DNA of 64,000 bases from Actinomycetales bacterium (GCA_020444245.1 JAHLLI010000026.1:643-64642), one strand, 5' to 3'; shown: positions 20,528 through 26,656, numbered from the stretch's first letter. The notes: generated from the sequence alone by a model not told the origin. Numbers and translations: made by a program.

Positions 20528-21847
20528 GTGATCTCCCGCATCGACCTCCGTGGCCGCACCCTGTCCGCTCGCGAGCTCACCGCGATCCTGCCCCGACCCG
20601 AGCTCGACGTGGCCCACGTCGCCGAGCAGGTCGCGCCGATCCTGGCCGACGTCCGCGAACGGGGCGCGGCCGCGCTGCGTGACCTGAGCGAGAGGTTCGA
20701 CGGGGTGCGGCCCGAGCGCCTGCGCGTCCCGGAGACCGCGCTCGCTGACGCGCTCGAGTCCCTCGACCCGACCGTGCGCGCGGGCCTGGAGATCTCGATC
20801 CGCCGGACCAGGGCGGTGCACGCGCAGCAGCGACCGTCCGGCTTCCGGATCGAGTTCGAGCCCGGTGCGGTGGTGCGCCAGCGCTGGATGCCCGTACGCC
20901 GGGTGGGCCTGTACGTGCCCGGCGGGCTCGCGGTGTACCCGTCGTCGGTGGTGATGAACGTGGTTCCGGCGCAGGAGGCCGGTGTGCCCTCGCTCGCGGT
21001 GGTCAGCCCGCCCCAGGCCGACGGGCTGCCGCACCCCGCGATCCTGGCGGCCTGCCGCCTGCTGGGCGTGGAGGAGGTGTACGCGGTCGGTGGTGCGCAG
21101 GCGATCGCGATGCTCGCCTACGGCGCCGCCGGTGAGGTCCCGGAGGACGGCGCCGTGCTCTGCGAGCCGGTCGACGTCATCACCGGCCCGGGCAACCAGT
21201 ACGTCACGGCCGCCAAGCGGCTGGTGCGCGGCACGGTCGGCATCGACTCCGAGGCCGGGCCCACCGAGATCGCCATCCTGGCCGACGGCACCGCGGACCC
21301 GCGACATGTCGCGGCCGACCTCGTCTCCCAGGCCGAGCACGGACCGACATCGGCGTCGGTCCTGGTCACCAGCTCGACCGAGCTGGCCGGCCGGGTCGAG
21401 GAGCTGCTGGTGGACCTCGTCGCCGCGACCAAGCACGGTGACCGCGTCGCGACCGCGCTGGGCGGTCCGCAGTCGGCCATCGTGCTGGTGGACGACCTGG
21501 GCGCGGGTCTCGCGGTGGTCAACGCCTACGGCGCCGAGCACCTGGAGATCCAGACCGCGGACGCCGCACAGGTCGCCGAGCGCGTGACCTCCGCCGGAGC
21601 GATCTTCGTCGGCCCCTACTCGCCGGTCTCGCTGGGTGACTACATGGCCGGGTCGAACCACGTCCTGCCCACCGGCGGCTGCGCGCGCTACGCGAGCGGG
21701 CTGGGCGTGCACAGCTTCATGCGCGCGGTGCAGCAGGTCGAGTACGACCAGGCCGCCCTCGACGCCGTCCGGGCGCGCATCCTCGCGGTCGCCGGCGCCG
21801 AGGACCTGCCCGCGCACGGCGAGGCCGTCGAGGCCCGCTTCGTCTGA
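20528..21847 (+). CDS. hisD: Histidinol dehydrogenase
   Basis: [48 protein letters not shown]. Confidence 0.97.
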
Positions 21848-21860
21848 CCGAGGAGCAACG

Positions 21861-22508
21861 ATGCCCTGGCTGGAGATCATCGGCTGGGCCGGTTCGGCCC
21901 TGCTCGTGCTGTCCCTGGTGCAGACCCGCCTCATGCGGCTGCGCGTGCTCAACAGCGTGGCGTGCGCCGTGCTGATCGGCTACAACGCGGCGCTCGCCGT
22001 GTGGCCGATGGTCGCGATGAACGTCGTGCTCGTCGGGATCAACCTCTGGGCCATCGCCCGGCTGCTGCGCGAGCGGCACGACGCCCGGGTCTACGACGCG
22101 GTGCCGATCGGCACGGACGAGCCGGTGCTGCACCACCTGCTGGCCAGGCACGCCGCGGACATCGCGCGGTTCAATCCCGACCTGGCCGGCCAGGAGCCCG
22201 CCGATCTCGCGGCCGGGGCCGACCATGCGTTCCTGGTCACCACCTCCGACCAGGCGGTCGGCGTGGTGCTGACCCGCGACGGCGCCGCGCCGGGAGAGCA
22301 GCAGGTGGTGCTCGACTACGTGCTGCCCGCCTTCCGGGACTTCACGCCCGGCGAGTTCGTGTTCCGCGCCGACGGACCGTTCCGCGAGCTGGGCACCCGG
22401 ACGGTGGTCGCCTCCCCGGGCATGGCCGCGTCGGAGCGCTACCTGCGGGCGGTGGGATTCGCCGAGCGTGACGGACGGCGGGTGCTGGACCTTCCGGCCA
22501 CGGGCTGA
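21861..22508 (+). CDS. Membrane protein: three short N-terminal TM helices plus GNAT-like soluble domain
   Basis: GAGGAG SD; hydrophobic N-terminal ~68 aa; LDYVLPAFRDFTPG...YLRAVGF resembles a degenerate GNAT motif. Confidence 0.6.
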   Translation: MPWLEIIGWAGSALLVLSLVQTRLMRLRVLNSVACAVLIGYNAALAVWPMVAMNVVLVGINLWAIARLLRERHDARVYDAVPIGTDEPVLHHLLARHAADIARFNPDLAGQEPADLAAGADHAFLVTTSDQAVGVVLTRDGAAPGEQQVVLDYVLPAFRDFTPGEFVFRADGPFRELGTRTVVASPGMAASERYLRAVGFAERDGRRVLDLPATG

Positions 22509-22707
22509 CGGGTGCCGAGCGCACCGACGGGGGCGTGATCGGTGCGTTCATCGCTTCGGGTGAACGCGCCGCCCGGCACCGGGTGAAGTCGTTGGGCCGA
22601 CCGTGGGATCGGCCGGTCCGCCCGGACCGCTGGGACCGGTCTCCTGGTCTACTCCTCAACAAGGCAGAGATGAGGCATCTGCCCGGAGTGGGAGGGAAGG
22701 TACTCCA

Positions 22708-22812
22708 ATGAGCAAGTGGGTGTCCCGTAAGGCAGTCCTCTCTTCCGCCAGCACCGCGATGGTCCTCGCTGCCCTGGCAGCAGTCACCGGTGCGGGCATG
22801 AAGTGGTGGTGA
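22708..22812 (+). CDS. Small peptide, 34 aa, MSKWVSRKAVLSSASTAMVLAALAAVTGAGMKWW
   Basis: Strong SD (GGAGGGAAGG 22691-22700); basic N-terminus, hydrophobic core, KWW end; stop 4 nt before the next gene. Confidence 0.75.
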   Translation: MSKWVSRKAVLSSASTAMVLAALAAVTGAGMKWW

Positions 22813-22816
22813 CACC

Positions 22817-24946
22817 GTGAGTGCCGGGGGCGGTGCTCCGCGGCGCCGCCCCCGGTCGCGGCGCGGCGAGCGCACCGGCCCCCTGCACCCCGCATGGGCT
22901 CTGCCGCTCTACGCGTACGGGGTGGGCGTGCTCGGCGTGGTCGCCGCGGCTGTGGTCGTCGTGGTGTCGCCGCCGTGGTCGGAGGGCGGTGCCCCGGTGC
23001 TCCAGCTCGGGGTGCTGGCCGCGTTCCTCGTCGTCGGTGAGCTGACCTCGGTCCCCGTGATGCGGGGCGACCGGGCCGCCGAGCCGGTGACCACGTCCAC
23101 GACGTTCGCCGTCGCGCTCCTGGCGCTCGGTCCGCTCTCCCTCCTGCTGCTGGTGCACACCCTTGCGGTCGCACTCGACGACCTGCGTGCCCGTCGCCGC
23201 CCGATCCAGGTCGTGTTCAACGCCGGCCAGTACGCGGTGAGCATCCTCGCCGGCCGCGCGGTCTTCTCCCTGATCTCCGGGGTCGGCTTCCTCGGCGGCG
23301 TCCCCGCGTTCGACGCCGGCCTGCTGCTGGCCACCCTCGCCGCGGGCCTCACCTTCGCGATCGTCAACGACGCGCTGGTCTCCGCGGTAGCCGGGTTGGC
23401 CACCGGGCAGCCGATCACGGCGATGCTCTTCGACGACCTGCTCTTCAAGCTCGAGACCTACGGCGTGCTCGTCGCGCTGGGCCCGGTCGCCGCCCTCGTC
23501 GTCGGCACCTCGGTGCTGATGCTTCCGCTGCTCCTGCTGCCGGTGCTCGCCGTGCGCCGCACCGCGCAGGTCGCCGCGCTCCGCGAGCACCAGTCGTTGC
23601 ACGACCCCTTGACGGGCCTGGCGAACCGGACCTTGTTCCGGCGCCGCCTCGAGCGCGCGATCGACTCCCACGGGGCCCGCGGGCTCGCGGTGCTGATGAT
23701 CGACCTCGACCACTTCAAGGACGTCAACGACACCCTCGGTCACGACGTGGGCGACGACCTGCTGCGCGAGATCGCCCGGCGGCTCGAGGCCGCGGCCGCC
23801 CAGCGCGAGGAGCAGGTGGAGGTCGCGCGGCTGGGCGGCGACGAGTTCGCCCTGCTGGCCGTCGCGGACCACCCGCGGCTGTTCGCCCTGGACCTGGCGT
23901 CCGAGATCCTGGGGGACCTCGCCCGCCCGATCGAGTCCGGACCCACCCGGTTGTCGATCCAGGCGTCCGTCGGCATCACCACGAGCGAGGGCACCCCGCT
24001 GCTCGACGTGCGCACCACGCTGCGGCAGGCGGACATCGCGCTGTACGAGGCCAAGCACGAACGAGCCCGCGCCGTCGTCTTCCACCCCGCTGCCCTGACC
24101 GAGTCGGTCGATCGGCTGCGGCTGCTGCCGGACCTGCGCGAGGCCCTCGACGACGACCAGATCCGCACGGCGTTCCAGCCCCAGGTCGACGCGGTCACCG
24201 GCCGGGTGGTCGCTGTCGAGGCACTGGCCCGCTGGGAGCACCCCGCGCAGGGCTCGCTGCTGCCGGAGACCTTCATCGGCGTGGCGGAGAGCTGCGGGCT
24301 CATCTCGGCGCTCACCGTGTCCGTGCTGAGGCGATCGCTGGAGGCGGTCGCCGCCTGGCGCTGCGCCGGCCACGACGTCGGCGTCGCGGTGAACCTGTCC
24401 GCGCGACTGCTGTCCGACCTGGCGCTGCCAGAGCGCATCGCTCGCCTGCTGGCGGAGACCGGGGTCCCTGCCGAGGCACTGACGGTCGAGGTCACCGAGA
24501 ACTCCCTGATGTCCGACGTGCGCGCGGCCCGGACCATCCTGCGAGGGCTGCGCGACATGGGGGTCCGGCTGTCGATCGACGACTTCGGGACCGGCTACTC
24601 CTCGCTCCTGCTGCTCCAGCAGCTCGACGTCGACGAGCTGAAGATCGACAAGAGCTTCGTCGAGGACCTGACGCCCGGCTCGCACGGCGAGTACCTCGCA
24701 CGGTCGATCATCGAGCTCGGCCACAACCTCGGTCTGTGCGTGGTGGCCGAAGGGGTCGAGAGCGCGGCCACGGCGGCCCGGCTGCGCGAGCTGGGCTGCG
24801 ACCGGCTCCAGGGGTTCCTGTATGCGCCGCCGGTCGATCGCGGCGAGGCCGACCAGCTCGTCGGCACCCTCCTTCGAGACGGGCAGCGTGCCGCCACGGT
24901 GGACGAGCTCATCCCGGCCGAGCCACGCCCGCGGGTGGCGGTCTGA
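22817..24946 (+). CDS. Membrane sensor-GGDEF-EAL protein (709 aa)
   Basis: Multi-TM N-terminal ~240 aa (MASE9-like by recall: VVFNAGQY); HDPLTGLANR, DLDHFKDVNDTLGH, RLGGDEF; EAL, DDFGTGYSS, LKIDKSF, AEGVE, QGF. Confidence 0.93.
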   Translation: MSAGGGAPRRRPRSRRGERTGPLHPAWALPLYAYGVGVLGVVAAAVVVVVSPPWSEGGAPVLQLGVLAAFLVVGELTSVPVMRGDRAAEPVTTSTTFAVALLALGPLSLLLLVHTLAVALDDLRARRRPIQVVFNAGQYAVSILAGRAVFSLISGVGFLGGVPAFDAGLLLATLAAGLTFAIVNDALVSAVAGLATGQPITAMLFDDLLFKLETYGVLVALGPVAALVVGTSVLMLPLLLLPVLAVRRTAQVAALREHQSLHDPLTGLANRTLFRRRLERAIDSHGARGLAVLMIDLDHFKDVNDTLGHDVGDDLLREIARRLEAAAAQREEQVEVARLGGDEFALLAVADHPRLFALDLASEILGDLARPIESGPTRLSIQASVGITTSEGTPLLDVRTTLRQADIALYEAKHERARAVVFHPAALTESVDRLRLLPDLREALDDDQIRTAFQPQVDAVTGRVVAVEALARWEHPAQGSLLPETFIGVAESCGLISALTVSVLRRSLEAVAAWRCAGHDVGVAVNLSARLLSDLALPERIARLLAETGVPAEALTVEVTENSLMSDVRAARTILRGLRDMGVRLSIDDFGTGYSSLLLLQQLDVDELKIDKSFVEDLTPGSHGEYLARSIIELGHNLGLCVVAEGVESAATAARLRELGCDRLQGFLYAPPVDRGEADQLVGTLLRDGQRAATVDELIPAEPRPRVAV

Positions 24947-24955
24947 GGGGGCGCG

Positions 24956-25534
24956 GTGCTGATCCTGGCGTGCGTGCTGCTCGGGCTGCTCCTCGTGCCC
25001 GCGACCGGCGGCATGCTGCGCCGCCTCGGGGACCTGCGCTGGCGCTCGGCCTGGCTCGTGGTCGCGGCGCTGGGGGTTCAGCTCGTCGTGCTCGAGGGCC
25101 CGGGCCTGCCTACGACCCTCGCCGCCGCGGGTCACGTGGCCACCTATGCGATGGCCGCGGCCTTCGTATGGCTCAACCGGTCCGTGCGAGGCCTCGTCGT
25201 GCTCGCGGCCGGCGCGCTGAGCAACGGCCTGGCGATCGTGCTCAACGGCGGCACGCTGCCGTCGAGCGCGGCGGCGCGAGACCTGGCCGGGCTGGAGGAG
25301 GCCGCAGGGTTCGCGAACTCGGGGGTGGTCGAGCGCCCGGTGCTCGGCTTCCTGGGCGACAACTTCGCGATCCCGGCCGGGTTCCCGCTCGCCAACGTCT
25401 TCAGCGTCGGTGACGTCCTCATCGTGGTCGGCGCCCTGTGGGTGCTGTTCTCGGCGACCCGCGCCGGGCGGCCCGCGGGGCCGGACCGTCCTCTGGTCGG
25501 GCATGCCCACCGTGGGATCGGCCAGGCTCCCTAG
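24956..25534 (+). CDS. DUF5317-like membrane protein
   Basis: Hydrophobic; GALSNGLAIVLNGGTLP, FLGDNF, ANVFSVGDVLI; GTG 9 nt after the GGDEF-EAL stop. Confidence 0.75.
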   Translation: MLILACVLLGLLLVPATGGMLRRLGDLRWRSAWLVVAALGVQLVVLEGPGLPTTLAAAGHVATYAMAAAFVWLNRSVRGLVVLAAGALSNGLAIVLNGGTLPSSAAARDLAGLEEAAGFANSGVVERPVLGFLGDNFAIPAGFPLANVFSVGDVLIVVGALWVLFSATRAGRPAGPDRPLVGHAHRGIGQAP

Positions 25535-25537
25535 AAT
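25532..25537 (+). promoter_or_regulatory. -10 hexamer TAGAAT, probable leaderless hisC promoter
   Basis: 6 nt before GTG 25544; overlaps the TAG stop of the DUF5317-like gene. Confidence 0.6.
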
Positions 25538-25543
25538 CGCTGC

Positions 25544-26656
25544 GTGCCCGCCGACCTGCAGCCCGCCCTGCCGCTGCGCCCCGAGCTGGCCGGGCTCGAG
25601 CCCTACGGCGCGCCGCAGCTTGACGTGCCGGTGCGGCTGAATGTCAACGAGAACCCGTACCCGCCCTCGCCATCCGTCGTCGCCGACATCGCGAGCGCCG
25701 TGGCGGCGGCCGCCGGCGGCCTCAACCGCTACCCGGACCGGGACTTCGTCGCCCTGCGCGCCGACCTGGCCGACTACCTGCTGCGCGAGTCGGGTGTGAG
25801 CCTCGACCCGGTGCAGGTGTGGGCCGCGAACGGCTCCAACGAGGTGATGCTCCACCTGCTCCAGGCCTTCGGCGGGCCGGGGCGCACGGCCGTGTCGTTC
25901 GCGCCGACGTACTCGATGTACCCGGAGTACGCGCGCGACACCGCGACCGGGTGGGTCGTGGGCCACCGGGAGGCGGACTTCGGCCTGGACCCGGAGCACG
26001 CCACGGCGATCATCGCCGAGCAGGCGCCGAGCGTCGTGCTGCTGGCGAGCCCCAACAACCCGACGGGCACGGCCCTCCCGCTCGACACCGTGCGTGCGGT
26101 GCTCGCCGCCGCGGCCCGGGTGCCGGGCGGGTGCGTCGTCGTGGTCGACGAGGCCTACGCCGAGTTCCGGCGGGCCGGGACCCCGTCCGCCCTCACGCTG
26201 CTCGCCGAGCACCCCCACCTGGCCGTCTCGCGCACCATGTCGAAGGCCTTCGGGATGGCCGGCGCCCGGCTCGGCTACCTCGCGGCGGCCCCGGCGTTGG
26301 TCGACGCGCTGCGGGTGGTGCGGCTGCCGTACCACCTGTCCGCGGTCACCCAGGCGGCGGCCCGTGCCGCGCTGGCGCACGCCACCGAGCTGATGGCCCA
26401 GGTGGACGGGCTGCGGGCCGAGCGCGACGCGCTGGTGGACTGGCTCCGAGCCCGCGGCCTGGCGGTCGCGGACTCGGACGCGAACTTCGTGCTGTTCGGG
26501 GTGTTCGACGACAGGCACGCGATCTGGCAGGGTCTGCTGGACCGGGGCGTGCTGATCCGCGAGACCGGACCCGACGGCTGGCTGCGGGTCAGTGTCGGCA
26601 CGCCGGAGGAGACGGCGGCCTTCCGGGCCGCCCTGGTGGAGGTGGCTGGACTGTGA
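25544..26656 (+). CDS. hisC: Histidinol-phosphate aminotransferase
   Basis: [41 protein letters not shown]. Confidence 0.96.

Follow-up and report, generated by a model that had tools for sequence, protein, structure and literature searches.

A conserved family of tiny predicted membrane proteins encoded next to MASE9 c-di-GMP enzymes and DUF5317 proteins in Actinomycetota

Introduction

What is the product, if any, of a short reading frame that stands directly in front of a gene for a membrane-bound c-di-GMP enzyme, and what has it to do with that enzyme? The question is raised by a stretch of 64,000 nucleotides from an Actinomycetales bacterium (GCA_020444245.1, JAHLLI010000026.1:643-64642), analysed as a whole and called the window below; the genome is high-GC and its named relatives are those of the Cellulomonas/Actinotalea group. 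An earlier note had taken the frame for a small gene likely missed by annotation, and had likened its terminal double tryptophan to the type II ComS/XIP pheromones of streptococci. The features of the window that bear on the question are the following.

22690..22700, + strand: Shine-Dalgarno region GGGAGGGAAGG of sORF-A, read directly from the sequence
22708..22812, + strand, stop included: sORF-A, encoding a 34-aa microprotein MSKWVSRKAVLSSASTAMVLAALAAVTGAGMKWW, read from the sequence, with the ORF listing giving the same frame
22815..22866, + strand: stable RNA hairpin, MFE -44.4 kcal/mol (z -4.56), a stability reached by 0 of 200 shuffles
22817..24946, + strand: 709-aa membrane enzyme MASE9-GGDEF-EAL, Pfam GGDEF 9e-37 and EAL 3e-69
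24956..25534, + strand: DUF5317 membrane protein of 192 aa, Pfam PF17248, 6e-23

Results

The small ORF as a coding gene

The frame of sORF-A runs from an ATG at 22708 to a TGA at 22810-22812, with the same coordinates, frame and 34-aa translation that the earlier note had given, and the residues singled out there are all in place: K3, R7 and K8, the hydrophobic AMVLAALAAV (17-26), TGAG (27-30) and MKWW (31-34). The strong Shine-Dalgarno (SD) signal seen before is there as well, GGAGG lying 12 nt and GAAGG 7 nt 5' of the ATG, and two relatives have the same SD region or one hardly different from it. When 61 related genomes were searched in six frames, full-length orthologues came to light in two relatives, at 88% and 85% identity, together with more remote copies 34-36 aa long; dN/dS over the three closest copies is 0.02-0.18. 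In one relative the upstream frame is interrupted by a 1-nt indel that falls between SD and ATG, and this places the start of sORF-A at the ATG of 22708. Among 110 distinct family members, 89% have an SD 4-20 nt upstream of the start, against a background of 21.5% at random positions, and 104 begin with ATG, while the invariant Gly, Ala, Pro and Tyr residues of the family are written with varying synonymous codons. Judged from these comparisons, sORF-A is a genuine protein-coding gene under purifying selection. That selection is strong at the C-terminal end, where the earlier note had placed its own test (the dN/dS range just given, and an invariant GAGxKW), and the homology and profile search of small ORFs that it had proposed returned orthologues plus a family in genus and order.

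The suggestion that annotation had missed the gene holds in part. No Pfam or NCBIfam model covers the peptide, and the exact 34-aa product carries no name; it is, however, already present in public gene-call collections, and the C. carbonis copy is annotated by NCBI as a 'hypothetical protein' of 43 or 54 aa, with an N-terminus that is too long.

Around the start of the gene, a 5'-UTR block CCTGGTCTACTCC (window 22645-22700) is conserved also in loci L002 and L003, and is able to pair with GGAGTGG(G/A)AGGG, the SD region of sORF-A, around an inner hairpin GGCAGA...TCTGCC. In folding energy this pairing does not surpass shuffles (z -0.31), and three sequences so close to one another leave no room for covariation to show. 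A search of 22300-23100 with Rfam gave no riboswitch or known RNA at E <= 1, and a sigma-70 promoter scan found none.

What the peptide family conserves

A profile built from 14 members found matches in 64 of the 401 genomes of the order, and the same profile retrieved 53 clusters among 1.84 billion proteins, all of 29-110 aa. The motif is C-terminal in all listed cluster hits except P0041, a frameshifted outlier, and none of the 53 clusters holds a fusion of the peptide to MASE9, to DUF5317 or to any larger protein. The sequence logo of 84 non-redundant members, anchored at the C-terminus, has R or K at -22, then 19 residues among which Ala, Ser, Thr, Gly, Val and Leu abound (with a preference for S-18, A-17, T-15, L-14 and A-12), and closes on V-V-G-A-G-x-K-W. 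The search pattern by which these members were collected required G(-4), [KR](-2) and W(-1); beyond this requirement K(-2) and A(-5) are invariant and G(-6) occurs in 81 of 84. An N-terminal M-x-K-W...VR is likewise kept. The layout of the family can be given as about 23-40 aa with a basic N-terminus, 15-19 small or hydrophobic residues, a small-residue motif, and a basic residue plus Trp near the C-terminus, deep-branching versions ending in AGGKW, GGARVRV or STVRW. sORF-A fits the family logo in its basic N-terminus, its small/hydrophobic stretch and its GAGxKW end.

The double tryptophan on which the comparison with ComS/XIP was built is present in the window copy and is not a conserved element. 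The residue after KW (n = 152) is W in 27 cases, N in 17, Y in 13, G in 12, V in 11 and missing in 12, and this variability marks the second tryptophan as an accident of the window lineage.

Conservation along the helix has a period of about 3.6-4 residues (permutation p 0.036), and the arginine and the Lys-Trp pair stand 19 residues apart in the peptide, as expected for two membrane interfaces. The hydrophobicity of sORF-A is borderline: its 19-residue Kyte-Doolittle mean of 1.83 exceeds the usual cut-off of 1.6, and its Hessa-scale sum of +1.65 kcal/mol makes TM insertion marginal. The peptide can also be read as a tripartite n-/h-/c-layout with the small residues G-A-G at -3 and -1, followed by only 3-5 residues. 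In the family GAG itself is invariant, and not loosely a set of small residues.

The enzyme and its MASE9 domain

The GGDEF and EAL signature motifs of the 709-aa enzyme are intact by eye. Its GTG start (22817-22819) lies 4 nt past the stop of sORF-A, and is supported by ATG-started orthologues that share the N-terminal tail. The N-terminal domain of the window copy does not match the Pfam model of MASE9 (PF20972) even at E 10; the model is matched by the N-terminal domains of 16 of the 19 aligned orthologues (best E 2e-8), the matching ones having 28-78% identity with the window copy across the full domain, so that the membership of the below-threshold window copy was assigned by orthology. 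MASE9 was defined by Galperin and Chou in a preprint to which the input of the domain was not known, which proposed that a ligand binds within the membrane, and which lists the fusion to GGDEF-EAL among the architectures (10.1101/2021.11.05.467447). MASE9 proteins include TM1467 of T. maritima and HdgA of S. venezuelae (10.1101/2021.11.05.467447; PMC6205966), with which the window enzyme shares the domain by orthology, the linkage to a small ORF and to DUF5317 being new: both are absent from the MASE9 preprint (10.1101/2021.11.05.467447) and from the Streptomyces survey (PMC6205966).

An AF2 model of the MASE9 domain (window 22880-23599; pLDDT 88.2, pTM 0.86) was compared with the PDB by Foldseek, and the best matches are almost all S components of ECF transporters, among them RibU, ThiT, BioY, FolT, PanT and a NikM-like protein, with target-normalised TM-scores of 0.6-0.66, E-values of 0.03-0.1 and Foldseek probabilities of up to 1.0. 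This likeness, which the MASE9 preprint (10.1101/2021.11.05.467447) does not mention, is only suggestive; as a lead taken from a predicted model, it would fit a ligand pocket inside the membrane.

The third gene, DUF5317

Five TM helices are predicted for the DUF5317 protein, whose conserved loop would be extracellular by the positive-inside rule; the invariant residues of the protein are Q42, H60, Y64, N74, N90, N97, N121, S122, D135, N147, S150 and D153. Its AF2 model (pLDDT 87.6) finds no fold match in the PDB with Foldseek (best E 1.9, TM below 0.25). A protein search returned solely actinobacterial relatives among the 120 matches listed, and our literature search found no paper in which DUF5317 is named.

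We also considered whether DUF5317 might be an LspA-like (Peptidase_A8) aspartyl peptidase, and rejected it. The resemblance is one of motifs only (LGDxF, FSVGD), and neither profile nor fold supports it: an hhalign comparison of the two families (20 versus 15 sequences) gave a probability of 0.57% over 17 columns, the DUF5317 profile found nothing relevant among PDB sequences, and Foldseek returned no LspA match.

A hairpin between the small ORF and the enzyme

The stop of sORF-A lies 3 nt 5' of the hairpin, the main stem of which pairs CCGGGGGCGG (22824-22833) with CCGCCCCCGG (22846-22855), and whose basal pairs take in the GTG start codon of the enzyme. The window hairpin has no U-tract, and a terminator scan found no canonical terminator. 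Since it moreover lies within the Arg-rich N-terminal tail of the enzyme, we read it as a coupling or attenuating structure. Relatives within the genus have equally strong hairpins directly past the stop that are unrelated in sequence, one of them with a U-rich tail. Over the named loci, the MFE of the 70 nt behind the last small ORF ranks among the lowest 5% for the locus in 39 of 52 cases (median z -2.5); where there are several small ORFs, the sequence behind the first one is unusually stable in 1 of 26. The hairpin is conserved in place, not in sequence.

The cassette within the his cluster

The window has the cassette flanked by hisD, together with a 214-aa ORF, on one side and by hisC on the other. 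When window 20528-26656 is compared with the corresponding loci of the two nearest relatives (L060 and L061), the same three genes, 76-88% identical, are found about 7 kb further along the his cluster, between convergent gene ends, at a site that corresponds to about 29.86-29.89 kb of the window. About 130 nt 5' of the ATG are conserved along with the cassette. The three genes move as a unit, and there has been a recent relocation within the his cluster. The 214-aa ORF (window 21864-22508), the membrane N-terminus of which weakly resembles YgjV (Pfam E 0.0025), is not beside the cassette in the two nearest relatives and is thus no part of the module.

Synteny and breadth of the module

At all of the first 14 loci that were inspected, the small ORF stands directly 5' of the GGDEF-EAL homologue, and the genes further upstream differ. 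In the extended set the order of small ORF(s), MASE9 gene and DUF5317 gene was found at 19 of the 19 loci with a MASE9 gene, a count that leaves out a twentieth locus (L070) where the contig ends and which holds small ORFs only. The named loci number 80 and come from Demequina, Cellulomonas, Actinotalea, Kineosporia, Jatrophihabitans, Nanopelagicales, Acidothermaceae and many MAGs; 70 of them have enough upstream DNA, and of these 56 carry a small ORF at the expected place. Over 301 genomes of the phylum, DUF5317 occurs in 121, MASE9 in 130 and both in 92, an odds ratio for co-occurrence of 11.9 that is not corrected for phylogeny. Among 14 control genomes, MASE9 and DUF5317 were both matched only in Thermus and Thermotoga.

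Many named loci have two small ORFs. The first ends in ...VVGAG[TSV]KW.., and the second is either a TM peptide ending in ...GAG[RK]KW.. or a hydrophilic peptide ending in ...PG[YR]KW[VG]. In a Demequina MAG, three near-identical tandem genes for a 36-aa peptide precede MASE9-GGDEF-EAL (L071, G340:C1) and two more copies lie at the end of another contig (L070, G340:C14), the contigs having probably broken at the repeat of the peptide gene. In deep-branching lineages of low GC, versions of 23-32 aa precede MASE9-HD-GYP genes; the operon there runs from an ORF of 25-32 aa, such as MKGRIFTILIALATLVLAGGARVRV or two tandem copies of MKVRILRALAILASIASCVVAGGKW, through one or two MASE9-HD-GYP genes to DUF5317, and one low-GC family has 1-3 tandem copies of a 23-aa peptide gene. 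Where Pfam detects no DUF5317, the peptide gene still stands just 5' of MASE9 at 14 of 20 loci, and this persistence makes MASE9 the tightest link of the microprotein. The pairwise divergence of the peptide only weakly follows that of MASE9 and DUF5317 (rho 0.26-0.30), and we made no use of so loose a correlation.

Several of these loci have particulars of their own. The second small ORF, sORF-B, is found in several families and starts 4-5 nt past the stop of sORF-A at L013/L038 (genome G051, coordinates 1019-1177 and 1462-1642), L039 (G044), L037, L042, L051 and L055-L059; it has a hydrophilic, variable body and an invariant end PG[YR]KW[VITA], in which the Pro and Gly codons vary synonymously, and some genomes have two tandem pairs of sORF-A and sORF-B. 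Inspection by eye led us to discard a programmed frameshift joining sORF-A to sORF-B, since the -1 frame is closed by a stop and UGG is an implausible site for a +1 slip. At L067 (G123:C3, 4223-6200) the MASE9-GGDEF-EAL gene is split over several frames, through frameshifts or assembly errors, with sORF-A, sORF-B and DUF5317 intact. Loci L216-L225, of the low-GC family f39 and with no DUF5317 detectable by Pfam, have 1-3 tandem genes for peptides of 23-26 aa (for instance MKKLMRVLIALGSLVGICSTVRW), an additional single-TM ORF of about 52 aa upstream, and, 3' of the MASE9-HD-GYP gene, a gene for a membrane protein of about 171 aa which may replace DUF5317.

Discussion

A proposed membrane-resident partner of MASE9

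On balance, and with some hesitation, we favour a membrane-resident microprotein that is a partner of MASE9 or is sensed by it, whether DUF5317 takes part or not, and whose translation is tied to that of the enzyme. The product of sORF-A would be a single-helix membrane protein of 34 residues, predicted to have its N-terminus in and its C-terminus out, and its invariant GAGxKW end would lie at the outer interface of the membrane. Remaining in the membrane, the peptide would act on the sensor domain MASE9, perhaps in company with DUF5317, either as a small accessory subunit or as an in-membrane ligand, and would thereby tune the synthesis or the breakdown of c-di-GMP. A ribosome terminating at 22810-22812 would melt the hairpin and allow re-initiation at the GTG that follows. 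As the ribosome must open a hairpin that buries the GTG, the output of the enzyme would be coupled to that of the peptide, and probably lie well below it; we infer the coupling of the two translations from this arrangement.

The conservation along the whole helix and the N-terminal region suggests that the intact peptide functions, and not only a C-terminal fragment, and as far as the alignments tell, it exceeds the needs of a disposable signal peptide; no gene for processing or export was identified. Four observations count against a partnership within the membrane. The hydrophobicity is marginal for autonomous insertion, tandem identical peptide genes fit a dosage-hungry signal better than a 1:1 subunit, the peptide diverges only loosely in step with MASE9 and DUF5317, and the hydrophilic sORF-B keeps the G-x-K-W end with neither TM helix nor export signal, which a role in the membrane fails to explain.

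Other explanations of the small ORF

The tandem copies would suit a secreted product. The peptide might be the precursor of a released signal, cut after GAG or elsewhere by signal peptidase, by DUF5317 or by another membrane protease, and sensed by MASE9 through its KW end or its helix as an autocrine or quorum ligand that sets c-di-GMP; we regard this as unlikely. The n-, h- and c-regions with G-A-G at -3/-1 before a tail of 3-5 residues would suit it, as would the variability of the positions flanking KW, which is of the kind seen in pherotype-like diversification. So would a hairpin that lets the peptide mRNA exceed the enzyme mRNA, the placing of the invariant Asp, Ser, His and Asn of DUF5317 in a loop predicted to face outward, and the weak resemblance of the MASE9 model to ligand-binding S components. 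Signal peptidase I, however, needs A/G/S-x-A/G/S and not a strict GAG, neither a processing enzyme nor an exporter has been identified, and DUF5317 has no detectable relation to LspA or to any solved protease. The helix and the N-terminal region are kept in sequence, and not merely in hydrophobicity, and sORF-B has the same end with no export signal. A product of 3-5 residues would be unusually short for a pheromone, and we know of no peptide pheromone as short as this; a processed product such as GMKWW or AGMKWW, as the earlier note had put forward, is pure conjecture.

The hairpin, for its part, could be all that matters. If sORF-A were a purely cis-acting leader, working by attenuation or by termination-reinitiation and perhaps responsive to Trp-tRNA, its product would have no function, and the stop placed 3 nt ahead of a -44 kcal/mol hairpin in which the following start codon is concealed, the conservation of that hairpin past the last small ORF, the placing of the cassette inside a his cluster, and the position of Trp codons at the extreme end, where trp leaders have theirs, would all be accounted for. 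We consider this improbable, as it leaves the amino-acid constraint along the whole peptide (dN/dS as above, with many invariant non-Trp residues across the phylum) to be explained, and as some lineages keep the peptide with no W in its tail; tandem copies and paired small ORFs would be superfluous, a search that was not exhaustive identified no alternative antiterminator, and the window hairpin lacks a U-tract. A cis role alongside the peptide's own function is likely. More improbable still is an independent small membrane protein (of the type I toxin-like kind, or a housekeeping micro-subunit) that sits beside a c-di-GMP gene by chance, or a spurious ORF. Small hydrophobic ORFs are indeed common in GC-rich DNA, and the link between the genes comes from comparative data, but synteny with MASE9 is kept from family to family and from class to class amid changing flanking genes, the three genes of the cassette relocate together, and purifying selection with a conserved SD and ATG excludes a spurious frame. 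A force-sensing arrest peptide of the MifM/SecM type was rejected as well, because translation arrives at the stop codon with the helix still inside the ribosomal tunnel.

Relation to known systems

ComS/XIP-ComR and SHP-Rgg are peptide pheromone systems of streptococci, in which PptAB and Eep serve processing and export, and Opp/Ami the re-import. sORF-A shares with them a very short ORF, a basic N-terminus, a hydrophobic body and a functional determinant presumed to be C-terminal, and in the window copy even the final WW. The family as a whole does not conserve WW and has no cytoplasmic receptor; no Rgg/ComR-type receptor gene lies beside sORF-A, whose neighbours are the 214-aa membrane ORF, MASE9-GGDEF-EAL and DUF5317, the second of these being a membrane sensor enzyme. 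The whole helix is conserved, and the hosts are Actinomycetota and not Firmicutes. The parallel with type II ComS/XIP thus falls away, on receptor adjacency as well as on the conservation of WW, and we rejected membership in that group.

The small single-pass membrane regulators of sensors, of which MgrB and SafA (both acting on PhoQ) and MzrA (acting on EnvZ) are examples, offer a further likeness, in that a tiny bitopic protein with no enzymatic domain, easily overlooked in annotation, is proposed to modulate a sensor through TM or interface contacts. sORF-A is not related to them in sequence, and its target would be a c-di-GMP enzyme with MASE9 and not a histidine kinase. It differs from them also in being the first cistron of the operon of its sensor, with a proposed translational coupling and a conserved hairpin behind it, and in being often paired or in tandem and travelling with DUF5317.

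The agr circuit consists of a precursor (AgrD), a membrane peptidase (AgrB) and a membrane receptor (AgrC), and the cassette resembles it in joining three genes in one operon, for a small peptide, for a polytopic membrane protein (DUF5317) and for a polytopic membrane sensor with cytoplasmic output. There is no homology to AgrB, AgrC or AgrD, however, the output is GGDEF-EAL or HD-GYP and not a kinase, sORF-A has no Cys for a thiolactone, and DUF5317 has no recognisable peptidase fold. CbiN and NikN are auxiliary small subunits of metal-specific ECF S components, CbiN having two TM helices in about 100 residues. Here the likeness lies in a small membrane protein that goes with a binding protein of the S-component type, the matches of the MASE9 model including a NikM-like protein; the fold match is suggestive only (E 0.03-0.1), the cassette has no EcfT or EcfA genes, and its output is signalling and not transport. 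With a transcription-attenuator leader, finally, sORF-A shares the hairpin, but its peptide is constrained in amino acids and its hairpin in the window has no U-tract.

Implications

Membrane sensor domains of the MASE type head many c-di-GMP enzymes, and for the input of MASE9 a dedicated microprotein of the same operon, together with DUF5317, is a concrete and testable hypothesis. The MASE9-associated microprotein family and its linkage with DUF5317 are described in no paper that we found; they add a widespread family of tiny proteins, of 23-36 residues, that lies outside the Pfam and NCBIfam models. They also reveal a recurring operon design of peptide gene(s), strong hairpin and sensor gene, which probably sets the ratio of peptide to sensor. 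One might speculate, and we do so tentatively since we think it rather doubtful, that the microprotein is the self-made input of MASE9, whether as an intact helix with a KW tail that plugs a pocket like that of the ECF S components, or as a KW oligopeptide set free on the outer side with the aid of DUF5317. If so, its abundance would be set by its own promoter, by tandem gene dosage and by the hairpin, and would be read out as c-di-GMP, a circuit from peptide to second messenger with neither kinase nor transcription factor in between. It would then be the first natural ligand for any MASE-type domain.
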